A stretch of DNA of 63,911 nucleotides, the filler included, from Dugesia japonica (Eukaryota): NCBI GenBank assembly GCA_001938525.1. It is 6 parts of 6 records of this genome, joined end to end, with 100 filler letters (N's around TTAATTAATTAA, not from the genome) between each part and the next. Parts side by side here need not be neighbours in the genome. Positions count along the whole stretch, not along the records: positions 26,236 to 36,469 come from MQRL01514425.1; 5 more parts are not named here. One strand, 5' to 3'. Made by a program: the position numbers and the translations under genes. The notes below the pieces were generated by a model. That model made no database searches. It saw only the letters and a list, made by a program, of their open reading frames with translations, and had not been told where the DNA came from. Of this stretch, positions 5,520-59,990 are shown one piece after another. The number at the start of each line of letters is the position of its first letter. The first letter of the stretch is position 1.

Positions 5520-5870
5520 AGGAAATTTTTATCAATTATTTTAATGCAAATTCAGTGAGATAAGCTAAGTCAAAATTTAAAAAATGACTTCTACAAACTA
5601 TTAAATAATGTTTTATATGATAAGACTATGGGTATTTTAAAAAAGCGTATGAATCACAGGTTATGTACCAATGAGAAGAAATCTGTAACATACAACAGCA
5701 AAGTTACATTTAAGCAAACAATATATATTGCAGAAGGACTCAAGGCTGTATTATTAGAGAAAGGTACAATGTGTCTCAATATACCGAGTTATATTAGCCA
5801 GGTGGTTCTGGATTTGAGTAACTTGCGAATGTATAGTCTGCAATATGAAGTTGCAAAATTGATACTAGTC
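5520..5870 (+). pseudogene. Maverick pPolB fragment (motif B region)
   Basis: YFNANSVR*AKSKF/KNDFYKLLNNVLYDKTMGILKKRMNHRL...NIPSYISQVVLDLSNLRMYSLQY, matching EKDFFKLMNNxxFGKTMEN...NKPIYVGxxILDLSKxxMYxFHY. Confidence 0.85.
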
Positions 5871-6289: not shown

Positions 6290-6850
6290 TGTTTAATAAT
6301 TTATTAGTTTTCACTCTATATTTATCGGGATATTGCAGTGTAAAGTCGAGAAATAAATAACCATGGGGTATTCTGTTGCATCCTGAAGTGAATCAATCAG
6401 AAATTGTCTATTATTTGGATATGCTTTTTATGTTAGAAAATCAACAGCAATCTGATATCTCGGGTCTTTGAATAGCACTAAGTATTGCACATTTAAATTG
6501 CGGGTTATATGACTACCTCCTTGATGAAATAGATTTTGAGTAATAAATATCAGTCACAGTACGATACCTCAATATCTTTATGAATAAATTATTAAAATAA
6601 TTTTTCTTATTTTTCTCCTGATATAGATCACCAGCAATAATAACATCACCTGATCTCAATCGTTTGCTCTATTTATAATTTTGATTTTAATGTTAAAAAA
6701 TTCAGATTTAGGCAGTCCATTCTCTTTATCTGCGCTCTTATGCCATTATATGTTTTTAAATTTCGACTTAAATAAATTTGATTTCAATAATTTACATACA
6801 AAAAAATCTTTAACGCTAGTACTAGTCCCAAAAAATTGATATACTACATA
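6290..6850 (-). pseudogene. Maverick/Polinton A32-like packaging ATPase
   Basis: Degenerate Walker A (FGTSTSVK) and Walker B (DVIIAGDL), then IFITQNLFHQGGSHITRNLNVQYLVLFKDPR...AYPNNRQFLIDSLQDATEYP/GYLFLDFT...YRVKTN. Confidence 0.9.
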
Positions 6851-7274
6851 ATTTATTTATTTCTACATTTTAATTTTTTCGAATTATATTTAAGTGCAAA
6901 TATCAGTTAAAGTAAGTTTAAGACGATAACTAAGAAACAAAAGCAAAACCAGAAAAAAAGAAAAATAATTAATAAGTATGTCTAATTTTTTTTTATTTTT
7001 ATTTTAAAGAATCAAATTATTTATTATATTTATTTTATCGAATTAATGATATTAATTCAATCTAAACCCTTATGTTCCTCATTAATTTGTTATTTGTCAT
7101 TAATTTTGATAATCAATATTAATTACAGAAGTAAAGTGTCACAAGACGTTATAAAGAAAATGAGCTTTCTTATAAGCAAACTATGTCAATTCAAAGTCAA
7201 ATGTGATAAGTTTAGAATTATATTCTTCGAATTTAAAAAATGTAAAATAATATGTTGTGAAGAAATTTCTAACT

Positions 7275-8101
7275 CACATTAGCAAAGTTACATTTAAGCA
7301 AACAATGTACATTGCATAATGATTCAAGGCTGTAATATTAGACAAAGATACAATATGTCTCGATAGTCAAAGTGGCCAGGTCGTTCTGGAGGAACTTGAA
7401 AAATATTGAAATCAGTTTGAATGCAAAATTAATATTATTGCTGTAGATACGGATAGGTTTTCTTATCGTGTACCTGAGTAGGTGGGAAATAACTCTTATC
7501 CTAAATAAAATCTCATGATCGGCTGTATACAATCAATTATTTAAAAGATCATTCACTCTATTACAGAAATTTTGCCAATAAAATTTGATTGTTTAATGAC
7601 GAAGATGAAGGTGAAAATTATTCTGAATGGGTATTCCCAAGATAAAAATGTTAGAGTCTGAAGAAAGAAGATTCTAGAACGATAATCAAAGCAAAAGGAA
7701 TCAGTTTAAAAAACAAATATCAATCATCAAAACTATTTAAATGCATTCAATAAAGATGAAGACGAAGAACAACAAACAAACAGGGTTAAACAGACTAGTT
7801 TTCGGTTGATAAATCAACAGGTTTACACAAATGCGTAGTTTTATGCCTGGATGAATAGCGCTTTTGGAGTGAAAGAAATACTAGTATGGTCTATAGTTTT
7901 ATAATTACAATTATTGTGAGAATAATTGTTGGACTTAACCATTGATCGGATTTGAGATTTCATTAAAATAAGATAAGGCTTCGATCAAAACAAAACAAAA
8001 TTTATTTGAACTTTTTTACAAATAAATTTTGTGTTGTTTTGATCGAAGCCTTATCTTATTTTAATGAAATGGTCTATAGTAATTATCAAATTACCAACTA
8101 A
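7275..8101 (+). pseudogene. Maverick pPolB C-terminal region, interrupted near its end
   Basis: SKVTFKQT... (paralogous to 5700), NYLKDHSLY...LFNDEDEGENYSEWVFPR*KC*S...IKAKGIS (DTSNYPxDHPLY...KDExxG...EFVGLRxKxYS...KAKG), and terminal DE*RFWSERNTSMVYSNYQI. Confidence 0.8.
7886..8080. mobile_element. Short Penelope-like (pLTR-derived) insertion with 12-bp target-site duplication and internal hairpin
   Basis: ATGGTCTATAGT at 7886-7897 and 8069-8080. The insert matches sequence next to the hammerhead motifs at 18400-18440 and 34850-34900. An inverted repeat spans 7957-8070. Confidence 0.7.
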
Positions 8102-8599: not shown

Positions 8600-10073
8600 A
8601 CGGTAAAATTTTCAGAAAAAGTGAGCATAATTTCAGCTGGATACTGCGCAGTATTTTGAAGTGTATTTCAAAATAACTTAGGTGGAAATTATTAGCAGAC
8701 TGTCAGGATATAGTTATTTACTGACATTGTCGAATTTGGAAAAAAAGGTGCAAATCTTAACATTTAACATAGAGATAATAAATACTTTATTTATATCATT
8801 TTAGCTATAAGCAAGTATGACCAAATACAAACAAATGTATGTAAACCTTTAAAATATCAAAATTATATGTCAAAATAGAAAATTATATGTAGAAAATAGA
8901 ATGCGGCTGGATAATATCAGAAATATTGAAAGAAAAAATACAGAAATTTCTATCAATGTTTTTTATGTTGTTCACATCATTTGGAAGATATTGATCAAGA
9001 TGTTTTCAAACATCCCAATTTAAATATCATCCATAGGTCCAAGGTGGTTGATAGAAAGAAGATTTATTTGTTGATGTTAGAAAATAGTAACAAATACCAT
9101 TACAGAACTGTAATTAACTTGAACAGGTTAATGAATAGATATGATAAAACAATGACACAAGAATCCAATTAATATATCCAAATAGTATCCAAATTGCTTA
9201 AACGGATTTATAAAGGAAATAGATTTTGAGAAGCATCAAATAATTCGTGAGAAGATTCAAACCAGAACAACATTATACCATTCCAAATTTATAATAGAGA
9301 TTTATTTAAGACATTGTCACGACCATTCGTTATAATACATATAATTAACACAACAAAATCACTTAAATACACATAATATACCCTATATTCAAATAATACT
9401 TTTAATACATGACATAATGTCTTATAATACATACAATGTACTCAATAATGTCATATAATGCACACAAATAACCCAATAAAGTCAATTAAATACATACCAA
9501 CGGATGACATATGTTTGCAAAGACATATGTCGGTTTCAGCAGGACTTTTTTAAAATAATTTGACTAACAAAACATCGTATTTACTGTTTTTTGGATATAA
9601 CCGTATGTATGATTTCCTTAAGTAAATTCGAGAAGTAAATAAATAATTAAAAAGGATTATAAAAAGTACACATTAAATGCACCAATTCAGGATAATAATC
9701 ACTTTACTGATCAGTATTTGGGCGCAATATGCTGTAAATGTAATTTTAGTTGAAGTGTGAAAATGCAACTACTTCTTTTATTTCACAATTTAAGAGGGTA
9801 TGATTTACTTATTATGCTTTATTTCTTAACTTGAAATATGGATTAAATAAATTTTCTCAATTGAGCCCGCATTGTTTTCCAACAACATCGAAAATGTTTC
9901 ATTGCTTCATAGTGCATGAAACTAAATTACCAGTAATTAAGTTTATAGATTCATACCATTTTTTAAACTCTTCTCTAAATACAGCGGTAAATTCCTTAAA
10001 AGAGAGAATTTTGACATTAAAGGAATTTAAAGATAGAAGAATTACGTCGTCAAAGGGGGTATTTCCATATTAA
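8600..10073 (+). pseudogene. Maverick pPolB N-terminal/exonuclease region, second copy
   Basis: FSWILRSIL, HRDNKYFIYIILAISK, ISINVF, IYLLMLENSNKYHY, NHFTDQYLGAICCKCNF (DHxHxTGxYRGAAHxxCN-like), FHNLRGYD, KFIDSYHFLNSSL, KGVFPY. Confidence 0.9.
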
Positions 10074-12687: not shown

Positions 12688-14879
12688 TATTTATTATTTA
12701 TTGCCACAAGTTTTGACAGTATATCTTCAGGCGAATTATTTTAACCTATGAGTATAGTATATATATTATAAAGTTCTTCATTGTGTAATCGATTATATAA
12801 CAGTCTTAATAAGATACAATGGAAACACATTTTCTATGAAACAACGTGGATTTTTGTGTTGATTCCAATGGTGCTAATATGTTTATGTAAAAAATTAATA
12901 TTTGATTATTTATGTAAGATTCTTTTTAAAAGCGAATTTAAATTTTTTGTATTTTGAAACGGAATTTATTAAAATCAGATATGTTAAATATTTAAATTAA
13001 ATTATTAAAATAGTTTTATAAAATAAATTTTAAATCTTTATATAATTTAAAGTTAAAAGCAAACGAATTTTAAAATTTATTTTGTTTACAGAAATTGAAA
13101 TTTTAGAATTTTTATTTGTTTTCAGAAAGCGAATTTGATATTTATAATTTGTGTTACATTTAAAATTTGTAATTTGCAGTATATATTAAAAATTTATAAT
13201 TTTAATAATTTGATTGTAGTTTATAAAATTATGAAATTTATAATTTCATTCGAAATAATATTTTTTATGGTATTTTTTACGTTATTTATTAAAATTAAAA
13301 TAAACTGAATTGATGACATATTTTTAAATAAACTGATATTTTTTTAAATTTCCGTTTCGAAATCAATCAATATATCAGTTTCGAATATCAAAAGTATTGC
13401 TTCAAGTTTTCACATCCCTTCCAGCGAGAACAAAGCATTTTATAGACAAGGATGTTTTTAATTTCCAGTAACAAGATTTACTTAATCCGATAAAAAACGG
13501 AGGCTGGGTGAATTTTCAATCTTATATCTTTAATATCAACCTTCAACTGTACCATAAGATCTGTAACGTCATAACATTTCCAACGGTACCATGATGGTTG
13601 AATATCATTATAAGTCTTTGTTGTGCTGTGAACATCGTTCTGGTGAGAACGAAGCATTTTATGGACAGTGTTCTTTAGTCAATGTATAAGTACTATTTTT
13701 CCATTAGAATGATACCAAAGTTGACTTGATACGATCCAAGTTGTAGGCGCAGCAAGTTATCAATATTTGATCCTTAATAACTTTTCACCGTCACGCTTGA
13801 TTGAACCGAGTATAGCACCATGAAATTCTTCATGTCTTTACACATACAATGATACATGTAGGATACTGTCCGGCTTAGGAAATTCAATACCGAAATTTGT
13901 TCAATCATTACCGAGTATACTGGCCACTTATAAGTAGTAATATAAATTTNGGCCAATCAGAATCGAGTATTCAAAGGTCAAACCACCAAATTTCTAAACC
14001 AGGTCAAAGTTGAAACCACTGAATTTCTAATCCACTTTGTTGGCGAAGGGAGGGGTTCAGTGCGCTAGGATTTACTTAGTTAAAGACATTCAATAAAGAT
14101 TTAGAAAAACCAATGTGAAAATTAATTTTTGAATCATTGACAAAATTAAAACATTTTACAACGATTCGTTATTCCAATTATATTTTTTCGTTTTATATGA
14201 AAAATAAAGGGTATAAAGAACCATGAAATAGATACACAATCATTACGTTAAACAAATATGAAAAAAACAAACCAAAAATGACGAGCACCACAGGAATCTC
14301 AGAATAATTTAAAGAAGTATTTTAATATCCATAATGAAAATTGAAATTAAAATAAAATATTTTAAGATAATATTATTATTTAATTTAATAAATATTCTCA
14401 ATTTTTTAAACAGTCAATGAAAATAATTATATACAAATGAACCTAAGTTAAAAATAATATCAAAATCATTATTTCCGGTAAAAGTATTTCCAAATTTTCA
14501 AATTGAAATTATTATGTATTACTGAAGCGAGTGTATTAAAACAAAACTTTTAAATAATAAGTCAAATATGAAATTTACTGCTTAATTTATGATTATTTAA
14601 AGCAAAAAATAAACAAGTATATTGAAACATAAAATTTAAGAAAATAATTAACTTCTTCCACTACTTTTAAATTTTGAAAGTATCATTAAAGATATTACAA
14701 TATACTTAGCTACATAACTACATGCATCGCGAAGTTTCATAAATTAACTTTAATAAGTTGTTAACATTGCTATTGGTTGGTTATTGAATCAATAAAATTA
14801 ACTTGGAATAACTGAGTATATTTCAATAATAATTTAACAATAACAATATGTTGATACAACATAATGACAGTATAATATT

Positions 14880-21363: not shown

Positions 21364-22217
21364 TAGATTTTTTTATGAAATACCTTTGATTCATTTCTAA
21401 TATTAAAATGTAAATAGTTGAGAACATAGAGCTAAAAATCTTTGTGCCAAATAAATAAAATAATGACGTTAAATAGTGACGTATTTAACTCAATTTCCAG
21501 AGACAACTAAGGGAAATCTGTCAAAAATAAAATTAATAATAATAGCCAGTAAAAACAAATAGAATACCTACCAAATAGTCTTAGAAACAAGTAGGCCTGT
21601 TAACAGGTATGGTATAAAAGAAAACTAGATTTTTTTTATTTGAAATTGTATCATTATGTATCATCAAACATTCCTAAATAATATCTTATAAAAATAACAA
21701 TATCAATGGACTACAAAGGAAAAAGATAATCTAAATTTAGATCAAGTTTAATGTGTTCATCACTAGATAACAAACCAGATATTTTAAAGATATTAACAAC
21801 ATCCTGGTATACTTCAAATTGAAATTAATCTGGTGATATAGAATTTCAATAATTAAAAACTGCAAATCTTATCGATCACAAGATTATATTATAAAATTAA
21901 ACTGATAAACATAGTTGCGGCAATAAAAAGAACATCAGAAAAATTCTTCTGACCAGCATTATTCATTATTATATAAATAAAGATGTAATCAAATTAAATT
22001 AAAATTTTAAATTATCCAGGAGCACTTGATACAATTTTAAGCTTACTTTTAACGGGTCGAAATTATGAAGAATATAGTGGTTAAATAACTGGATTAATGC
22101 GTGATTTAATAAATTAAAAATAAAGATTATTTAAAAAAATATCTAAACATAAAATAATTTTCCACAAATTGTTTTGTTAAATTTTTTAATATTTAATTTT
22201 TAAAATTTATATATATA

Positions 22218-23470
22218 CAGTAAAACCTCTGAAAGCCGGAACTTATTTAAGGTGGAAAACCTGTATATAACGGAAAATCCAAATTTTTAAAAGTCCCTTT
22301 CAGAAATAATGACTATAAATTAAGTACGGATGCCGGAATACTGCCAGACATGGAAGACGGAACAAATTTTATGAAATTCATTAATTTTCATGAGTATATA
22401 AGCCGGTCAAAAGCGGAATTTCTTTGTTTAAATATTCCTGTTTTTGATAAAAATTTAAAATTTTAGTACAATGTCTTTTATATTTGGAAAAATTAACAAT
22501 TTATCTATGAAACAGAAGAATCAAGCAATCAATATGGTGATAAATGAAAAGAAGAAGGTTAATGAAGTAGCCACATTTTTTAAATGCGGCAAAAGCCAAA
22601 TATACNNNNNNATTAAAAACAAGGATGCAATAATGTAGAGTATGGAGAGTAGTATAAATTCACCAAAGAAAAAATTACGGAAAGAAGTTCATGAAGAATT
22701 AAATGGAGCTATTTTTGAATGGTTTTGTGTTGCAAAATCTAAAAATGTAGCAGTAAGTGATCCAATATTCAAAGAAAAAGCTATGCAACTTGCTGAAGCA
22801 ATGAAAATTACTAATTTTTGTGATTCCAATAGAATGTGAACCATTTCTTGTAGAAGATAACTTGAAAGAACTACAGTCATTAATTGTTGAATCGTTATCA
22901 TTAGTTGTAGATGGTGAATCTCAGTTAATAAAAGCATCTGATTATGTCGATATTGATAATCATGTCTTCACAGAAAGTGACACCGCATATATCGAAGATT
23001 TCGTTCCTATGGAAGAAGATTCGGACGAAGAGATAATCTTTGAAAGATAATTAAAAATGCCAAGTTCAGATGAACTAATTTCATCTTTCAAAATACTCAA
23101 GGATTACTCAAAATTAAAGGGAACTTCCGTATCTTGGATACCATTGAACAATGGCATCTTCAAATTTACGATGATTTGCCAAAAACATCAATATTGAAAT
23201 GACAAACTAAACTCGGGTATTTTTTCTTAAATAAAGAATTAATTGATTACTCTGATATTTTAATTTATTTAATTTTTCTTTTCCTTAATAAAATGTGTGG
23301 AAAAAAGTTATATTCAAAAACTATATTACGGATTGAATTTTATTGAATTTTATTGCGTGACTATTATGCAATGCAAGTAAATTTTTACTTAACTTTTTAA
23401 GCTGGAAAAACTGTTTAACGCTGAAAGAACCAAGTTTTTCGGTCCCTTCCAATTCCGGCTTTCACAGGTT

Positions 23471-23990: not shown

Positions 23991-25306
23991 CAGTACTCGT
24001 AAAAAGTCTGTTCACCCCCTATAAAAAATCCAACTTTTAATTGGAATGAATACTTTCAGCCACGAAATTTAATAAATAAATAAATAAATGATAGTCTTAA
24101 TATTTAATAGGATATCCTTTTGATTTTTTGACCAATTCTAATCTTTTTGTCATCGAGAATACAATTTTCTTGCATAGATTACGAGAAAGTTTGTACTATT
24201 CGCTTTGGACCTCATTCCATAATTCTTCAGCAGAATTGTGTATCATTGGTCTTACTTTCTGTTTAAGGATACCCAAGATATTTTCTATGGGGTTCAGGTC
24301 AGGAGAATTACCTGAAAAGGGTAAGACATCAATATTTTTATTTTTTAGGAAAGCCTAGGCACTTTTGGCCTTATGTGGTGGAGCCAAATCATGTTGAAAA
24401 ACGAATGCTGCTTTTGGAAAGACTAAGCATTTACCGACTATGTCTATATCACGAAGTATCTCTTTTTGATATTTCTCGGCATTCATATTTCCATTGATTC
24501 TTTTCAGAAGTCCAACTCCATTAATGTTTAAGCAGCCCCAAACATGTATGTATAGACCATGTCGCATAACTGCTTGGATAAAGGTAGGATTGGGATTTTC
24601 CAATGAGGTTCTTTGAATCAATAATTTACTTGATAACGAATATGACTGAAAGATACACTCGTTGCTGAATACAACATTTCCCCATTTATCTGCATCCCAC
24701 CTACTGTAAGTCATGGCCCAGGAAAGTCTTCTGAGACGTTGGTGCAATTTGAAATATGGCTTCTTAATTGCTAAATAACTTCGAAAACCGTATTGTTCAG
24801 AATTTTCTGAACAGTACTAACAGAAACATTTTGGACAGCACTTGTATTGCACATATGCGTGATATTATGAACAGATAATAAGCTATTGGCTTTGCAAATG
24901 CGTGTTATAGCTCGTGAAGCTTGGGGTCTGCCATTTCTCATCTTATCTCGCACGGATCCCATTTTCCGATATTTCTTCCATAGATATTGCATTCCACGTT
25001 TTGTCACTGTCTTGTTGTACTTTTCACGTAATTCACGAGCTGTTTCTGTCCAAGACTTTCCATTATTCTGTAGTATAACGATTACATTTCTTTGAAATTC
25101 TGTTAAATTTCTAGACATTATAATGCTCTAAAACCATGTCATTTTCCATTATTTTACATGTATCAATTAAAAATAAATTATAATAACTTATTTTATTTAA
25201 ATAGTTTATCAATAACTAAATATTTAAACAATTAGTTTAAACTAAATTGAAATGTTTATTAAAGGTTGCATTTTTATAGGGGGTGAATAGACTTTTACGA
25301 GTACTG
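23991..25306 (-). mobile_element. Full-length Tc1 (DD34E-type) transposon with disrupted transposase
   Basis: TIRs CAGTACTCGTAAAA(A)GTCT.TTCACCCCCTATAAAAA at both ends, with TA on the left. The transposase runs from 25118 to ~24110: GRP, WGNVVFSNE, VWGC, FQHDLAPPH, SPDLNPIEN. It has a frameshift, a stop and a catalytic D>N change. Confidence 0.95.
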
Positions 25307-26235: not shown

Positions 26236-26596
26236 CTTTCAAATAGAAATTAATTCCTCGTAAAAATTTATTCCGTCACCCAAATTATGTTTTAATAATT
26301 TTAATTTTTATTATTATTGATTTTTTAAAATTGTAATTTATTATTAGATAAATTTTGTAAAATATTATCGCTCAATTATATCGACCATTTACCATATTTA
26401 CAAATCATATTGATGTTAAAATAAAATCTGAAATTTGTAAGTCGTGATTGTTAATATTTTCAATACAGTAAATTTTACAGTAATAATTTTCACTTCAATT
26501 AATTCTAAAATCTTATTGGTTGATGTAGTGAGATTTATTACAGTTATTAAACAAAACAAAATACACAACGCAATTACAAGTGATAGTTCATCAATA

Positions 26597-28101
26597 ATGA
26601 TATATATTTACTTCATTTTGGGATTATTGATTATCTTGTACTACTTTTATGGATTTCAAAAGAGAAATTCGATACCAAGAGGACTTAAAGAGACTCCAAT
26701 AGAATATGGACTTCCAATTCTCGGAATAATACACAAGATCAAAGAACCTATGCACAATTATTTATTAAAACTATCAGAAAAACATGGACCAATATTTAGA
26801 ATAAAGTTAGGAATGAGAGAAGTTGTAATCCTTAGTAATTATCAAATAATCAAGAAAGCATTTGTAGATGATGGACTAAACTTTTCCGGACGATGGAGAA
26901 TGAAATTAATTTCACTTATTACTCATGATTCAGGAATAATTTTCAAAGATGGACACGATTGGTCTACACAAAGGTCATTTGTTCTCAAGGTTCTTCGGGA
27001 TTTCGGATTAGGCAAATCTAAATCAGTTGATTTAGTTCAAAATGAATGTTCATTTTTATTGGAAGAATTAGAATCACTTGAAGGGAAAATTATTGATTTT
27101 TCAAAGATTATACCGATTTATACAGCAAATATCATTTCTAAATTTATTATGAATAAAAGATTTGAACGAGAAAATCCGAAAATTGCCAAGATTGAAAAAA
27201 TGTTAAGTGAAGAAATCAAAAAAAAAGACATAATTCAACTGCTGCATATTATGTTTCCAAAATGTGATACATCAGGACTATTTTGTGAATTAATTATCAA
27301 TTTTACGTCAAAATGGAAAGAATTTTTAGAAATTCAAGATTATTTTAAGGAAGAAATTGATGAGCATTTGAAAACAATTGATTTTAATTGTGAAGGTGAA
27401 GATTTGATGGATCGATTTTTAATTAAACAGAATCAATTGAAACAACAAAATGGTGATGTTGCATCTTTCACTGAATGGCAATTAATACGAAATTCAGTAG
27501 AATTATTTATTGCTGGATATGAGACAACATCAACAACTCTTTGTTGGTCGTTTTTATTCATGTCNNNNNNNNNNNNNNNNNNNNNNNNNNNNNNNNNNNN
27601 NNNNNNNNNNNNNNNNNNNNNNNNNNNNNNNNNNNNNNNNNNNNNNNNNNNNNNNNNNNNNNNNNNNNNNNNNNNNNNNNNNNNNNNNNNNNNNNNNNNN
27701 NNNNNNNNNNNNNNNNNNNNNNNNNNNNNNNNNNNNNNNNNNNNNNNNNNNNNNNNNNNNNNNNNNNNNNNNNNNNNNNNNNNNNNNNNNNNCATTTCGA
27801 TCATGATATTTGGGAGAAACCGATGATATTTTATCCTGAACATTTTTTAACTGAAGATGATACTGGGAATGTAAAATACACACCAAGAGATGAATTGATG
27901 CCATTTGGTATTGGTAAACGACAATGTCTAGGAGAATCTCTAGCTAGAATGGAATTCTTTATTTTCTTTACGAGTATTTTACAACGTTTTAAAGTGAAAT
28001 TAGCAAAAGATTTAAATGAGAAAGAATATGAAGAAGCAATTCTCGGAAAAGATGGAATTATTCGAGGATCAATTGTTAATGATTTCATTTTCACTAAATA
28101 A
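26597..28101 (+). CDS. Cytochrome P450, CYP2 clan, apparently intronless (gap 27565-27791)
   Basis: N-terminal membrane anchor MIYIYFILGLLII, LPILG, KHGPIF, WSTQR (WxxxR), LRDFGLGK, I-helix AGYETT, PEHF, and heme motif PFGIGKRQCLG. The gap length roughly fits the missing K-helix segment. Confidence 0.95.
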
Positions 28102-29000: not shown

Positions 29001-31172
29001 TGCGATGAATAAAACCCTTTTCTTTGAGAAAGCTTAGAATGAGAATATCAAACTTTGCGACATAATTAAAATGTTTTTGATGAGTCGAATAAAACAGATT
29101 TCATGTCTTTCTAATGATGGTAATTTTATTTTAATAAAGTCATCAGATTTGATTGATATTCCAGAAAACCTTGATTTTCACCATGAAAGAAGTGCTTTTT
29201 AACAATAGNTCTCTATGCAATGTATATATGAATTTTGATTCACTTTCCGATGAATTGAAACTATCCCCCTTAAAGTCAAGATATTGGTTTAAACCATTTG
29301 TTTTAAATATATCTTCAATGATATGTTTTCTACTTTTAATTCTCTATCGACTGATATCAAGATCTTGACAACTGTATTGGAAATAATTTGATGAAGACCG
29401 TTTTAACAATTTGTTTTTTAAATCGTTTTTTTTACTTTTTACTTTTGTGTTTGACTAATATCTAAACTGCGCCATACTGCTTGCCATAGAATTTTGCATC
29501 AGATTGCCAAAAATTCGTTTTCATAACACCTCTGTTTTAACCGCTATTGAGGAGAGTCTATGTAATATATTTTCGGATTTGTGCGGAAATTAAGGACTTT
29601 ACAGTAGTAGCCTTTTAGGCAATGCATAAGCATATTTTAATTCTCTATCGAATGGTTTAAGTTTTAAGTGAAAAATTTGTGGTTGTATGCTGTTTTTAAA
29701 TTGTAAAATTTTAATAATTTCTTGCCCTTACATTCTATTACATATATAATTATGTTTGAATCTAGCCTAATAGAAACCCTACAAATACATTACAAGCACA
29801 CAAACATATAAAAACATATTCACAAATAAAAAACATTCAACAGTTCATACCCAACGTACTCAATCAGATCAATGCTCATCAATTCATAAATAAGACCAAT
29901 GCAGAAATCAAAGTTCAAAAGTTCAGAATTATATGATATATGACTTTGCGGGTTCCCAAAAGTAGTGAGAAAAAAAGGCGCAAATACAAAAGGTTGGGTC
30001 ACGGTTCACATGGCAACCGTATCAAAACCATGATCGTGACCGTTTCCATGACAACCGGACGAAGTATGGATTTATTGATTTTCCGCGGTAACTAAAGGCA
30101 GAAAATTATTGAGTAATATGTATCTGAGATTGCCGTATCTATGGAAAATGTATCTATGGAAAAAACAAAACTTTTCTTTAGATTTTTGAAAATTTTTAAA
30201 ATGTGAAAAACTTTAGAAAAATATTTTGAGTCTTATGATAACTTTTAGATTTTTTTCTGACCTTGGTTACCAAGAATGGGGCGGTTGTCATGGTAACATG
30301 CAAAGATATTTTCATCGATTTTTCTCAACAACTAAGAGGAATAAAGTAGCGTTAATTGCTGAACTATCTGTACCTTTTGTGCCAGCGTCCAGATCACCTG
30401 ATTTTATGACAGGAAAAACTGAAAATATATCAAGATTTTTGGTTGTTTTTAAAAATTTCTATTTTGAATAATGAAAAGAACTGTCAATCGATGACCAAAC
30501 CCCATTGACGACTCTTTTTGAATAGTATCAAAAAGCATTGCCGATAAAATTAATAGAAAATAATAATCATTGAACTGAACAAGAAATTATGGTCCACAGA
30601 ATGTATATAACAATGAAAAAATACAGGAGATGATGACTGGAATTAACAATAACAACATCAGTTTCATGTAGCTGTACAGATTTCTTTTTGTAATTGTTTT
30701 ATAAATATAATTTTTTTTATTAAATATAGTTTCATTTAAAAAGTTATAAAAAGTTATAAAATTGTAATTAAAAAAATAATAAATTATAAAATATAATAAA
30801 TTTATAATAAATGTTGTTAAATATAGTTTTTATAAAAGTTTAATACAGGCATGATGCAAATGCAATACACACACAATGCAGATACAATACATGTAATAAA
30901 TAATTTAACCATAGCAAATTTTGATCAATAAAATCAATTAAGTAAAATAATATATAAGTAACGGTCATAACTTATTTTATCATAATTGTGAAACGCTGAA
31001 TAAAAACTCTCAGTACATTGCTGTTGATGATGAAAGAAAGCCAGTTGAAGATGCCATGGAAAAACTGCAAACATATACTGAAAGTGGAAGAAAGGTCAAA
31101 TACATACTATGTCTAATGAGCCGATTAAAAGGTATGCTTGATTTTTCTAGTCAATTTGATGAACAATCATGA

Positions 31173-31660
31173 ATGATGCAAAATTCAAGAAAATTAACTT
31201 TTGAAGAAATATTTGGTGAGAAAATACGAAATAATGAAGGTTTTCTTTTGGTATTGTATTACTACTTCATTAATTTTATTTACTTTAAGGAAATTTCAAT
31301 CATACAGTGACATACCGCGGTTATGAAATGGCATTTCTCAAAGAATATAAATCATTTCTTTTACCAGATGCAGTCAAGTTGCAAAATGTTAAATTTGGTT
31401 ATCTAATATTGCAATTGGCAGATAAGAATTTACAATTCTTTAAAGATAAATTGAGTCAATTTAATATGGAAATAGAAATAAACATTCCAATGAAAAGATC
31501 ATTTTACATGAGAGCAACAGATTTTAATTGGTATGATACAACTGGAAAAATACGTATTCATACACAAGTTGGGACGGTTAAAATTAAGCTTTTACTCCAA
31601 GAATACAAAATAAAAAAATGAAATCAAAATTCCCATATGGAGATTGTTAGACGTGTTTGA
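31173..31660 (+). pseudogene. Spliced orphan cargo gene (exon 31173-31239, intron 31240-31289, exon from 31290)
   Basis: Removing a 50-nt GT..AG intron joins MMQNSRKLTFEEIFGEKIRNNEG to NFNHTVTYRGYEMAF...QEYKIKK. A shifted frame continues EIKIPIWRLLDVFDC. Confidence 0.5.
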
Positions 31661-31785: not shown

Positions 31786-32045
31786 TTAACAATTATTTGA
31801 ACAATAATCGTTTTCATCATCATCATCATCTGTAATGTTTTTATCATTCACAATGTTTTCTTTAAAATTCATATCATTTTCCTCTTCTTCAAGTGATGCA
31901 AGTTTCAGTACTTCATCAATTATTAGAGTTGCATATTTTTTAATAATGAATAAAATTTGTTTTTCCCCTGCAATATTCATGTTTTCAAAGCATTTTCAAT
32001 CAGTATATTGATTTTGTTTATGGTCAAAAAAGTATAAATAGACCG
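31786..32045 (-). pseudogene. Orphan cargo ORF with acidic tail
   Basis: YLYFFDHKQNQYTD*KCFENMNIAGEKQ...DDDDDENDYCSNNC, divergent from the TBP-like gene. Confidence 0.35.
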
Positions 32046-32071: not shown

Positions 32072-32368
32072 ATGTTGTCAAATATAAATGATAAAGGTTA
32101 TACCACTGAAAATTTAAATAGTCTTTAATTTAGTTATAAACCAAAACAATGTGTATTAAATTATTCCGATTTAACAATAATTATATTTCCAAATGGAAAA
32201 TGTAGAATAATGGGTTGTAAAATACCATTAGAAAACAAAGAACTTACATTCAATACAATTGTCAAAGAACTAAAATCGGTGACGGTGAACGCTTCCTCAC
32301 AGTTGTCAATAAATTTACAGAAATTGGCTGAAACATCAAATTGCATATATGAACAAGAAATGTATTAG
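32072..32368 (+). pseudogene. Divergent TATA-box-binding-protein (TBP)-like gene
   Basis: MLSNINDKGYTTENLNSL*FSYKPKQCVLNYSDLTIIIFPNGKCRIMGCK...KSVTVNASSQLSINLQKLAETSNCIYEQEMY. By eye this aligns to TBP TALIFSSGKMVCTGAK and NxVGSCDVKFPIRLEGL...SSYEPELF. There is one in-frame stop at 32126. Confidence 0.7.
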
Positions 32369-32607
32369 ATGTAATAAATTAAATGTATTAACCTTTTTGT
32401 TATGTCTTGTTTTATATTTAATAGAATTTATATGTAAATAATTAAATCATGTAATACATATACATGATATATCCAAGACATAAGCAATGTAGATGCAATT
32501 TATACATCAATATTATTGATTAGACAGACTTATATATAAAGAATATATATATATAAAGAATATATATAAAGAAAAGTTATAATTCATTTTTTTATAATTT
32601 TATAACA

Positions 32608-33296
32608 ATGATGAAAATGGATGATTTTGAAAGTAAAATGGTGGAGAAGGAAAAAGAAAATATCTTAAAATTATGTAACCAGCAACAACAACATCAGCGA
32701 GAAACACAAACGACCAGTAAGTATCTATTCCAACTTAACTCAATTCTCGCCAACAATATGGACAAATATCTACGTGATTGTAGATATTTTATTTCTGAAA
32801 AAAATTATAAAAGTGATTCCAGAACATAAATACCATCGAAAGAAATTTGAAAGATTAAGTGACTGGGAAATATTAGAATATAGATATTTATTAGAAAAGG
32901 ATATTGAAAGAGGAATTCGTGCTGTGAATCAAATAAAATAAAATAATGATAATAAATTTAAATATTATTTAACAGGTTCCATTGTTAGCAATGTTGTTAC
33001 AAGAAAGAAAAAAACGAAGAGAACCCCAATTTTCATATCGGATGGGTACCACATAAAANTTATCAAAAATAGTCGAAGGGTTGGACTTTGCGCTCAAACT
33101 TAGTATAATAGAAAATATGTTAAAAAAATCTAATACAGAAAAACCGTACAATCCGCATGAAACAGTTCAACAGCAAAACATATTTAATCTTCAAATAGTA
33201 TCGGGTGCATTACAATCGGTGAAAAGATGCGATTTACTTCGAGATGGAGAAATTAGAGATTTAAGTAATAATATTAATAAAAATAAACAACTTTAA
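32608..33296 (+). pseudogene. Orphan cargo gene, frameshifted and possibly spliced
   Basis: MMKMDDFESKMVEKEKEN.../KYHRKKFERLSDWEILEYRYLLEKDIERGIRAVNQ/ then, after an AACAG acceptor, VPLLAMLLQERKKRREPQFSYRMG...ALKLSIIENMLKK. Confidence 0.4.
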
Positions 33297-34743
33297 TATT
33301 ATTATTATTNNNNNNNNNNNNNNNNGTTTCAATCATTTATTAATTGAAGACAAAGATAGTGAACATCGGCCATCATGTTTTTAATATAAATAAATATTTA
33401 AAATTGTTTTGTTTTTTGAACATTATAATAGAATAGTTTTTAAAATTTTATGGAATAGATTTTAAATAAAAGTAAAATTAATAGTAAATTCAAATTAAAT
33501 TATTTATGTTCTAGTTTTTGGACATTTAAAATAATCAAAAAAAAGAAAATTTCATATTTTTCAAATTTTTTCCAATATTTCTATTGACAAAAAATTGTAG
33601 ATTTTAGAACAAAACAATTTTTAAAAAAACTATATGGCAAAACGCTCAAAAACATTGGAGGACGCGAGGACAGAAATTTTGGAACGTTATATCGTTACCA
33701 TTATTTAAAATAGAAATTTTTTAAAAACGACCAAAAATCTTGATATATTTTTCTCAATTTTTTGACATTTTAAAATATTTTGTAAAATAAAAATTTTTGT
33801 TTTAAATTTTTCAAAAAAGATTTTTTAAAAAATATTAAAAAAAATTTTCTTATCAAAAAATCAGGTGATCTGGATGCTGACACAAAAGGTTCAGATAGTT
33901 CAGCAATTAGCGCGACTTTATTCCTCTTAGTTGTTGAGAAAAATCGATGAAAAAATATCTTTGCACGTTACCATGACAACCGTCATATTCTTGTTAACCA
34001 AGGTCAGAAAAAAATCTATATTCCCTTACAAAAGTATTTCTCAAAAAAATATATGGTAAGTCACCTAAAAACTTTGGAGGACGCGAGGATATGAACTTTG
34101 GAACGTTATATCGTCATCGGTATTCTATAGAAAAATTTCAAAAAATTATAATTAGACTCAAAGTATTTTTCTAAAATTTTTCATATTTTAAAACTTTAAA
34201 AAATCGAAAAAATATTTTTTTTTTCAGAAAAATTTCGAAAAAAAATACAATAAAGTTTTTGGTTGCTATTGCAACAGTTGCCATAGATACGGCCACCTCG
34301 GGTACACATTACACAATAAGTTTTCGCACAACATTTCCCTTAGTTACCGTGCAAAATTGTAAAAAAATTGTAAATAATGCCGAAATCGCAAATCTGATTG
34401 TTTATTTGATAATGAAAATTTTTTTTACTAGATTGTATGTTTTAATGAAAAATTGCATTATGTAATTGTAACCGTTTATTTTATTATGGGAAATTTTAAT
34501 GATATTTTATTTAAATTTTGGAAAAATGGTGTAAATTTAATAAACAATAATTTCAATAATAGATGGCTAACACTAAGCCAACTCATGTTGGATTATTATA
34601 AATGCTAATTACATTTTAGTTTTTTTCATTCAACAGTTTTCCACTGAGACCTTCCCGAAGCTGCTAAATAAATTGTTGTTTTTGTATCTTTATATACCCT
34701 TAATAAAAACGTTTGCTAAAAGGTATTTATTACTTTTAAAAGT

Positions 34744-50413: not shown

Positions 50414-52123
50414 ATGGCTGATAGAGAAGAGAATGTATATCGTGCCAAACTTGCTGAGCAAGCTGAACGATACGATGGTAAAAAATGTTTATTTCTAGAA
50501 GTTTGGTTTCAAATTTTGGATTTTAGAAATGGTAAAATCAATGAAATGTGTTGCTGCATCAGATTGCGAATTATCTGTTGAAGAAAGAAATTTATTATCA
50601 GTAGCTTTTAAAAATGTCATTGGATCTAGAAGAGCAAGTTGGAGAATTCTCAGTACAATCGAACAAAGAGAAGAAGCCAAAGGTAGTAGTCAAATGAGAA
50701 TAGAGTTAGCCAAAGCCTATAGAAAACAGGTTGAAAAAGAATTAGCAGAAGTCTGTGATGAAGTGGTGAAAGTTTTGGATACGCAGCTTTTGCCGAAAGC
50801 ATCAAATATTGAATCCCAAGTATTTTACTTGAAAATGTAACTTAATACGAATTTCAATTGCATCATTATGTAATATTTATAGGAAAGGCGATTATTATAG
50901 ATATCGAGCTGAATTTGCCATTGAAAAAGAACGTGAAGAGGTTGCCCAAAAAAGTTTAGGGGCCTATGAATCTGCAATGACCCAGGCTGAAAGTTTGAGC
51001 GCAACTCATCCCATTCGATTAGGATTAGCTTTGAATTTTTCTGTTTTCTATTTTGAAATTATGGGTAATCCTGAAAAGGCATGCTCATTAGCGAAAACTG
51101 CTTTCGATCAAGCAATAGGAGAATTGGATAACTTAACTGAAGAGGAAAATTACAAGGATTCTACATTAATAATGCAATTGCTTAGAGATAATTTGACTTT
51201 GTGGAATTCTGGGGAAGAAGATGGTAAGTGACTTATTGAAGGCTATTTTTTATTGATTTATAATTTTTGAGTACTTATCCGATGAATTTGTGTTCGAAAT
51301 TATTGATAATTCATCTAAATTTAACCATAAACTTTATATAATTATATATATAGATGATATAGAAATGATAGTCAAAATTTAATTTTAATAATAAAACAAG
51401 TTTTTATTACTTGTTTAAAGATAAAATTTTTCAATATTAAAAATAATTAATTGTTTTTATAAATATCAGGTTAATTATTTTAAAATTTGCATTCTTTCTG
51501 CATAAACATAATCCATGTGAAAAGGAAGTCTAGTTGCTATTTATAGAATTCTTGATGACTAATATCACTAATGGCTGTTAGCAACAGACGTGAAAGCAAA
51601 TTATGTTATGATTTATTAAATTATTTTCGTAACAAATCAGTGTGTACGTAAAATAATAAAATTACTTGAAAGGAATTTCAATTTGAGCATTTTTAATCAC
51701 GATAAATTAAAATTTCAAATATTTCGAATTTAAAATTTTAAATTCAATATTTAAAATTGACATAAAAATATATTTTATTTAATATTTTTAAATAAAATTT
51801 CCATATTTTTAAATGGCGTAAATTTAAAAGTAAAAATTTAAACCAAATAAAGTTTTCCAGTTTTATTAACTCAGCAGTTGATCTAATTGAAGTATCAAAT
51901 TACGACTGACTGCTAGAAAATGTTTGAAATTTGTTATTTATTATGTGACAGCATTAATGCGAAATGCGAATATCAAATATGCTGTACAAATATAAGGTAA
52001 TAATATTTTATTGGTGAATTTATTATCGATTCTATGTTTTTCTTTGAATTACAATAATTATTATTGTTAATTATTTTAGACAACAAACAAAACGAGACAA
52101 ATGCTGAAGGTGGAGATCAATAA
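50414..52123 (+). CDS. 14-3-3: 14-3-3 protein; exons 50414-50477, 50527-50836, 50883-51223, 52080-52123
   Basis: [86 protein letters not shown] introns of 49, 46 and 856 nt. The last exon [14 protein letters not shown] is less certain than the rest. Confidence 0.97.
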
Positions 52124-58952: not shown

Positions 58953-58979
58953 GATTGGACGAAAATCGGTGCAAGAGAT

Positions 58980-59340
58980 TAAAATTAGGTGATGTAATTA
59001 TTTTCGATGAGATATGCCAGAAAGCAAACAAGGAAAAGGATTTTGACAATTGATTTACAAAGATATCAATACACTGTAATGTGATAATGACGATCATTAC
59101 AAAAAAATATCTTTCACTATGGTGGTGATTATAGAACTTAAATTTTTAATATTTGGTTATATTGATAAATTTAAGAGATCAAACTGTTGTTGATTTTTTA
59201 GCATGATAAGCATATATAAATAATTGACAATTTCTATTGGATTCATTTTAAGAAGCAACAATATATTTTAATGAATATATATTTCCAAGATTTTACACAA
59301 CAATGTTAAGATTAACGTCGAGTTCAAATTGATAGTTTCA
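58980..59340 (+). pseudogene. Maverick packaging ATPase, second decayed copy (5'-truncated)
   Basis: GDVIIFDEICQ...FTKISIHCNV..IIT/NIFHYGG...YLVILINLRDQTVVDFLA**AY.NN*QFLLDSF*EAT, homologous to 6290-6850. Confidence 0.8.
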
Positions 59341-59444
59341 ATCCAAAAGGTGTCATAGTAAATATAATTTAATAAATATAATAAATAACAATAATAACAA
59401 TAATAACAATAATAAATAACAATAAATATAATTTAATATTTGAC

Positions 59445-59990
59445 TAATGACAATATTTGCTAAAATTTTATTTGATCCCAAAAGGATTAATCAAGCCAAC
59501 AAGTATTATAACTATATCAATTGATACAGTATTTCAAATGATGTCGATTTAATAATGAAATTGATAAAGGGAACGATAAAGAAATCAATAAATAAAAAAT
59601 CAGAGATTATAAACAAGAAGCAATCTAAAGTTGACACTACTAGGCAATCATCAGATGTAAATAAAAAGTCAGCAAGATTGAGAAAAAGATTCAATCATAT
59701 GGAAAATAAATTAAGCTATAAATAGTATGCACGTTTGAGAGACCTCTAGTCTCATAAAGAAATGAGGATGGAAATTTTCAATTCATTTCCAACGTTTGTT
59801 TTAGATGATTTACTAGAAAATATTGTAAATATTGTTCGCAGTAATGTTACTTTAAGTAAATATAGAAAACAAGTAATATAGAATCAAAAAAGTATGCTTT
59901 CACTTGTAAATAGTGAGAACAAAGAATTTGTGAGAAAAAATAATATATAAACAAAATGGTAGATTTATTTGAAATAAATTTTAAAAGATT
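59445..59990 (+). pseudogene. Small basic Maverick accessory ORF remnants downstream of the ATPase
   Basis: FVLDDLLENIVNIVRSNVTLSKYRKQVI resembles the NILKGNVPL-type small Maverick ORF, and it lies next to the ATPase. Confidence 0.45.

Follow-up and report, generated by a model that had tools for sequence, protein, structure and literature searches.

A dead compact TBP gene of the Maverick/Polinton lineage in Dugesia japonica and a candidate promoter word of its intact relatives

The evidence assembled here indicates that a gene at positions 32072–32400 of a 63,911-nt stretch of Dugesia japonica DNA (the window, six joined parts of assembly GCA_001938525.1) is a dead gene for a compact TBP of the Maverick/Polinton lineage, that it lies in a gutted element, and that its intact relatives probably use the encoded protein as their own promoter reader. 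We hold the identity of the gene as a compact Maverick-type TBP with high confidence. The window copy is a fossil, of value because it points to the family.

The original prediction described an open reading frame at 32072 broken by a TAA at 32126, and this frame is confirmed: codons 1–98 occupy 32072–32365 on the plus strand and encode lobe 1 and the first part of lobe 2, with the nonsense stop at 32126–32128. An intron that removes this stop was considered and rejected, because the residues on either side of it align in frame with the family. The damage had been put at this single TAA, which is real, but the estimate was too low, as three further stops follow codon 98 (32366, 32372, and 32375) and the last third is unconvincing. 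Of the family protein, the final ~50 residues are unrecovered in the window copy: adding the decayed tail (32366–32400, plus strand) leaves the profile score no higher, 57 of 60 shuffles of the tail score as well as the real one, and a frameshifted continuation is absent from the other two frames. The tail retains, from 32384, five residues of a conserved lobe-2 strand, which 39 of 20,000 shuffles of the 90-nt stretch match. The window copy is dead and cannot act.

With X at the stop, the window open reading frame matches Pfam TBP (PF00352) in two stretches (E 1.2e-5, 25.5 bits), above the curated cut-off of 22.9 bits, so that the predicted TBP-likeness holds. Against a profile built from 34 intact relatives, the window copy itself excluded, it reaches 91 bits, and its top match in a search of solved structures is an archaeal TBP (E 5.6e-5). 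Both TFIIB-contact glutamates are present, and the motif earlier given as YEPE in fact reads YEQE. A canonical-type TATA box at 32033–32040 (plus strand), 39 nt upstream of the start codon, is by its sequence a likely host-TBP promoter for the gene.

A search of 1.84 billion representatives with the window open reading frame gave 48 matches at E ≤ 0.001, and 12 of these reach 1e-10 or better. Three (P0011, P0016, and P0048) were dropped as repetitive proteins, and the remaining 45 form one family of ~150 residues. A profile built from 34 full-length members matched 357 proteins among 4,210 candidates. The residue statistics below come from 155 distinct proteins, including the 45 from the window query, and the relatives thus number at least 155, with 120 of the 357 profile matches listed. 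The median length of the compact family is 152 aa, and no longer relative (173–2000 aa) was found among 37 candidates, although this is weak evidence. The lack of an N-terminal extension, which had been noted before, is therefore correct as an observation but reflects a family trait and not decay. Among 18 intact family genes pN is below pS in all 153 pairs, with pS near saturation; the check for selection among copies thus shows the intact relatives to be under purifying selection. One compact TBP gene (L024:243-726) is apparently split by an intron in lobe 1.

The fold was assessed on the intact relative P0007 instead of the broken copy. Its model (pLDDT 95.8) has the full TBP fold and superposes over its whole length on archaeal TBP (Z 13.8, rmsd 2.2, 146 aligned) as well as on human TBP (Z 13.2, rmsd 2.8), and Foldseek matches it to solved TBP at E 1e-9; on Pfam TBP, intact relatives score 56–60 bits. 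An atlas look-up of P0007 yielded nothing but TBP clusters, the "Archaea" label there resting on one record. A library of predicted structures of viral proteins holds distant TBPs only, at 20% identity or below, and a viral-contig collection gave no family member with the window open reading frame as the query and four TBP loci of only 27–28% identity with the family profile. A search of sequencing runs listed at least nine partial matches, from five studies, with no RNA run among those listed.

The spacing between the lobes has a median of 46 in the compact family (140 of 142 measured), compared with 59–61 in 20 cellular or giant-virus-like reference TBPs and 52–56 in intermediate forms, and the P0007 model has no helix between strands 45–51 and 65–78. 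The intact relatives are thus predicted to form a two-lobed TBP saddle from which the long helix of the N lobe (H2) appears to have been deleted. In the accessible part of PMC7221094, this helix is described as carrying the basic patch bound by TFIIA, Mot1/BTAF1, TAF1, and Brf. The C-lobe TFIIB-contact glutamates are kept in 146 and 147 of the 155 proteins, where six gaps are due to short sequences, and in 39 and 37 of the 45 window-query proteins, six of which end before the motif. A filter for the motif E-P-E-x-F keeps 142 of the 155; the residue counts given here are unfiltered. Of the four intercalating phenylalanines, three are conserved (153, 148, and 146 of 155) and the first of the N lobe is, in the alignment, absent from the compact family. 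The DNA face carries new invariant Asn, Arg, and Ser residues, and several other residues there are altered.

Phylogenetic analysis against eukaryotic and giant-virus-like TBPs places the window copy inside the compact family. In a 56-row tree the window copy and the compact family are joined at 98/94, and compact and intermediate forms group together (100/99) apart from cellular, giant-virus-like, and full-length Maverick TBPs, the root being arbitrary. An AU test on a 33-row quick tree rejects the grouping of the window copy with eight eukaryotic TBPs (p-AU 2e-68), from protists and fungi by appearance. The separation in the tree and the AU test bear out the earlier view that the gene is too divergent to be the host TBP. 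It could still be argued that the gene is simply a processed pseudogene derived from host TBP or TRF2, since it is broken, sits in the host genome near a host P450 gene, and was compared in trees without the animal sequences. We consider this extremely improbable: in addition to the AU result, the window copy is 35–65% identical to most compact relatives, compared with 18–26% between the family and solved cellular TBPs, it shares the helix deletion and the family motifs, and its neighbor is a Maverick SSB-type gene. The evidence supports an element-borne gene that is not host-derived. In this respect the original prediction was right, but the link that it drew to TBPs of the NCLDV type was not, as the gene is instead a specific, helix-deleted TBP of Mavericks.

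The genes around the compact TBPs are core genes of Mavericks/Polintons. Of 194 loci confirmed in a metagenome scan, 80 were kept, and 24 of these (L005–L028, at 36–52% identity) are family members. A Maverick core gene is present at 9 of these 24 loci and at 6 of the 9 loci of at least 3 kb; the 15 loci without one are mostly contigs of 1–3 kb. By Pfam, the 18-kb intermediate-type L027 carries pPolB, integrase, ATPase, and PLA2, while L005 and L018 carry an adenain-type protease and L007 and L024 an A32-like ATPase or integrase. A search of the viral-contig collection for the Maverick ATPase gave none. A scan baited with the ATPase recovered seven Maverick-like contigs (L085–L091) from bacterial genome bins, a single bin holding four of the seven; the contigs likely represent eukaryotic or viral contamination of the bins. 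Three of the seven carry TBP genes, namely, an intermediate form in L085, a full-length form in L087, and one beside a TFIIB gene in L090; absence from the other four says little because they are pieces of only 3–8 kb. Among the distant matches, L061 and L066 are two more Mavericks with a full-length TBP. In L061 a PC4-like gene lies beside the TBP gene. The adjacent TBP and TFIIB-like genes of L090 (L090:4714-5828; Pfam TFIIB E 7e-7, zinc ribbon E 3e-6) adjoin integrase and capsid-like genes.

The L090 pair raises the question of whether compact TBPs, too, have a partner encoded by the element, TFIIB-like or not, and form with it a closed system that dispenses with host TFIIB. Most viruses with a TBP also encode TFIIB, according to the part of PMC7221094 available, and there is room for an element-encoded TFIIB because the compact-type elements are seen only in part, their contigs all being partial and at most 7.2 kb long. 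However, the open reading frames of L005–L028 and L085 contain no TFIIB match (best E 0.044), none was found in the 18-kb L027, and the glutamates are near-invariant here, as opposed to ~40% conservation of these TFIIB-binding residues in viral TBPs, which mostly pair and co-evolve with a viral TFIIB (PMC7221094, same part). We therefore regard a closed system as improbable and favor the use of host TFIIB by the compact TBP.

In the window, the TBP copy is preceded by a decayed Maverick gene (31289–31618, plus strand) for a predicted T7 gp2.5-type SSB with an OB fold, which starts directly after a likely splice acceptor, matches a profile built without the window row at E 1.7e-9, and adjoins TBP in six relatives. 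The model of a relative has an OB fold, with T7 gp2.5, Enc34 SSB, DUF2815, and ASFV CP312R as top matches (Z 6.7–7.4); the match to T7 gp2.5 (Z 7.4, rmsd 2.9, 105 aligned) is middling in Z, and the SSB-type profile has no significant match among solved sequences. Two short open stretches at 30951–31307 (plus strand), with no Pfam or PHROG family, are possibly upstream exon(s) of this gene. On the other side of the TBP copy lie a likely two-exon small open reading frame (32589–32938, plus strand; donor-like GT at 32717 and acceptor-like AG at 32812–32813, as read from the sequence) and broken pieces of open reading frame beside an assembly gap (32942–33296, plus strand), neither with a family found. 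A PHROGs search of nine window open reading frames gave nothing useful.

Long terminal inverted repeats bound the 4.3-kb segment that holds the TBP copy. The imperfect left arm (30086–30473, plus strand) may reach out to an AGTAGT at 29961, 125 nt outside it and one of 14 in the window, and the right arm (33699–34349, minus strand) is internally duplicated. A 14-mer palindrome is common to both arms and to the stretch between the left arm and the AGTAGT. Repeated palindromic 14-mers of this kind occur at 30004–30297 and 33967–33980, no comparable cluster is present in the fetched Maverick loci, and they resemble the RFX X-box consensus. AGTAGT is the common 5′ end motif of vertebrate Mavericks in the accessible text of PMC8097293. 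No ACTACT right end exists between 31261 and 43415, so that no target-site duplication can be assigned. No Maverick core gene, pPolB and integrase included, is matched between 29.5 and 34.8 kb, and no YATAAAC (the promoter word discussed below) precedes the genes of the segment. The segment at 30–34.3 kb is a remnant and not an intact element.

The repeats themselves are open to a second reading, in which TBP and SSB genes of Maverick origin came to be flanked by the repeats of a different transposon that captured this fragment, or by two unconnected copies of a repeat. The identity of the arms is uneven (91–94% in the inner and 66–78% in the outer parts), the right end has no ACTACT, and the arms show no DNA match to any family locus. 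Against this, the AGTAGT lies just 125 nt outside the left arm, and the stretch between the two shares its palindromic 14-mer with both arms. We find this reading rather unlikely, although it can hold together with our preferred explanation, since it concerns how the fragment was packaged and not what the genes are.

Further Maverick remnants tie the family to a core-gene-bearing Maverick within the same genome, that of an AT-rich eukaryote. A second, more decayed compact TBP remnant (7106–7330, plus strand) matches the family profile at E 5.4e-10 (35 bits), and in the tree it falls with the compact TBPs at the end of a long branch. Head-to-head with it lies a Maverick packaging ATPase remnant (6365–6856, minus strand; tblastn E 2e-37, 45% identity to the L013 ATPase), and both are flanked on either side by remnants of Maverick pPolB (5568–5849 and 7523–7897, plus strand; tblastn E 8e-10 and 5e-6 to the L027 pPolB).

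Other features of the window can be noted in their own right. At 58958–59926 (plus strand) there is another Maverick ATPase remnant together with the small gene that follows the ATPase in relatives, and nearby tandem-repeat arrays at 57–58 kb resemble those at 3.4–5.2 kb; this region may represent yet another decayed element of the lineage. Decayed Maverick pPolB-like pieces are found at 2180–2392, 8930–10070, and 14417–14497. By eye, we also recognized a host cytochrome P450-like gene (26441–28101, plus strand) that is apparently intronless and has an assembly gap inside, a two-exon host 14-3-3-like gene (50499–51231, plus strand), and decayed transposons of the Tc1/mariner-like and pogo/CENP-B-like types with short inverted repeats (24000–25300, minus strand, and 22200–23200, plus strand).

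The genes of the elements that carry these TBPs are often preceded by a positioned word. In an unbiased count of 6-mers upstream of predicted starts, ATAAAC occurs 27 times, compared with 3.3 expected, peaks 25–50 nt before the ATG, and is sense-only there; GTAAAC is not enriched, and of 41 upstream occurrences of TATAAA, 23 continue with a C. YATAAAC lies 25–56 nt before 27 of 90 genes of TBP-carrying elements where ~1.4 are expected, as counted from −60 to −15 with dinucleotide shuffles and with first-ATG guesses as the starts. At compact loci, with L006 left out as a near-copy of L005, it precedes 18 of 66 genes at 10 of 20 loci (antisense 0; shuffles 1.1, maximum 3), and at three intermediate loci it precedes 9 of 24 genes (antisense 0; shuffles 0.3). 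The corresponding counts are 2 of 256 for control genes, 1 of 21 for L061 and L066 and 0 of 12 for L090, all with full-length TBP, and 0 of 26 for the AT-rich Maverick loci L086, L087, L089, and L091. The word was discovered and counted on the same related loci; in the held-out intermediate locus L085 its strict form precedes one of six genes and ATAAAC is strand-biased 8 to 0. The TBP genes of the relatives are preceded by YATAAAC in none of 22 cases and by a TATAWAW box in 7. Of the YATAAAC sites, 19 of 28 are intergenic and 9 overlap the upstream coding region. The word stands before four of six ATPase, one of three major capsid, and two of four minor-capsid-like genes, as well as one SSB-type gene, and is found beyond the virion genes. 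Before compact-type genes there is no enrichment of the poxvirus-type TAAATG, the herpesvirus-type TATTWAA, or the ATAAG word. In L061 and L066, a different word, CGTAAG(A), precedes 5 of 21 genes (0.3 expected).

From these observations we infer a two-stage scheme in which the TBP gene would first be transcribed by host factors from its ordinary TATA promoter. The compact TBP might then bind YATAAAC through its remodeled, more polar DNA face and use the conserved glutamates of its C lobe to bring in host TFIIB and Pol II. Without the basic helix of the N lobe, it could escape Mot1/BTAF1, TAF1, TFIIA, and Brf, and the outcome would be a second transcription wave of packaging, capsid-related, and other element genes. 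Likely splice sites in the element genes, seen in their sequences, fit nuclear Pol II transcription. The original suggestion of an element-encoded basal factor gains support from the conserved glutamates and the positioned word, even though the window copy itself is inactive; that such a factor redirects the host polymerase is our inference. Several points count against a promoter reader, among them that YATAAAC precedes only 27 of the 90 genes, not all of them virion genes, and in its strict form only one of six in the held-out L085; in addition, the aligned sequences suggest that the compact TBP has lost the first N-lobe phenylalanine and changed several DNA-face residues.

The main rival holds that host TBP, or a host forkhead factor, reads YATAAAC, whereas the compact TBP is a decoy or repressor that, for example, holds TFIIB or blocks promoters. 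In its C(-25) variant, the adenovirus major late TATA box is a word of the YATAAAC type. The solved structure 1qn3 is, by its title, a cellular TBP on that variant, and host TBP could thus read YATAAAC. The loss of one of the four intercalating phenylalanines also fits a decoy, and ATAAACA matches the forkhead consensus. However, YATAAAC is strictly sense and positioned and GTAAAC is unenriched, unlike an orientation-free forkhead site. Furthermore, the preference for C after TATAAA and the rarity of the word in full-length-TBP Mavericks and in the four AT-rich loci speak against a word read by host TBP, and the new invariant polar residues on the DNA face suggest a selected DNA contact. We thus judge the decoy unlikely and prefer the reading of the compact TBP as a promoter reader.

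More broadly, and only tentatively, animal Mavericks may run lineage-specific pairs of TBP and promoter, with a helix-deleted TBP and YATAAAC in one lineage, a full-length TBP and CGTAAG(A) in another (L061 and L066), and TBP plus TFIIB in a third (L090). The compact form could then be the smallest known Pol II promoter-specificity factor, one that uses host TFIIB, has escaped the regulators, and drives a virus-like staged transcription. How animal Mavericks switch on their capsid and packaging genes bears on whether virions are made. A conserved element TBP and a matching promoter word are directly testable and could serve to recognize active elements in RNA data. The compact TBP is also a natural experiment, that is, a TBP saddle with an altered DNA face and no N-lobe regulatory helix.

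A TBP in a Maverick-type element is not wholly unreported: Starrett et al. mark "TBP" in figure legends for MELD viruses (PMC8502044 Fig. 5; bioRxiv 697771), with no family, structure, or promoter analysis in the accessible parts of these sources, and one of their supplements gave no match for TBP. We found no description of the compact family, or of YATAAAC/TATAAAC in Mavericks, in a literature search that covered subscription journals and Repbase thinly. The available part of PMC7221094 makes no mention of Polintons or transposons; the main texts of a 2026 PLV preprint, PMC11161782, PMC11131425, and PMC10748475 are without TBP or TATA, and in PMC12220804 these appear in the reference list only.

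The relatives resemble Mavericks, Polintons, and adintoviruses, as far as these are described in the accessible text of PMC8502044 and PMC8097293, in their pPolB, chromodomain rve integrase, A32-like ATPase, adenain-type protease, capsid-like genes, and PLA2; the same text does not list TBP among the Maverick core genes. The window segment is like Mavericks in its long inverted repeats and AGTAGT and unlike them in having lost all core genes. The compact TBP also recalls the TBPs of giant viruses and herpesviruses such as KSHV ORF24 in being a virus-type element's own TBP with a lost host-regulator surface, a polar DNA face, and a variant TATA word (PMC7221094, PMC7498053, and PMC12529657, each in part). 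In the portions of these papers available, ORF24 likewise has a polar DNA face (PMC12529657) and reads TATTWAA (PMC7498053, PMC12529657), but it is without the TFIIB glutamates, uses an additional domain to bind Pol II, and depends on five partners. In the literature as accessible, giant viruses pair their TBP with their own TFIIB, whereas the compact TBP consists of the bare core, retains the glutamates, and is encoded at loci where no TFIIB is seen. Finally, the compact TBP shares with cellular and archaeal TBPs (PF00352; PDB 1cdw, 2z8u) the saddle fold (Z 13–14), the C-lobe E-x-E stirrup, and three of the four phenylalanines, but differs from them in its ~150-aa length with no N-terminal extension, in the apparent deletion of the N-lobe helix and loss of the first N-lobe phenylalanine, in the invariant Asn, Arg, and Ser of its DNA face, in its low sequence identity to them, and in being encoded by a mobile element.
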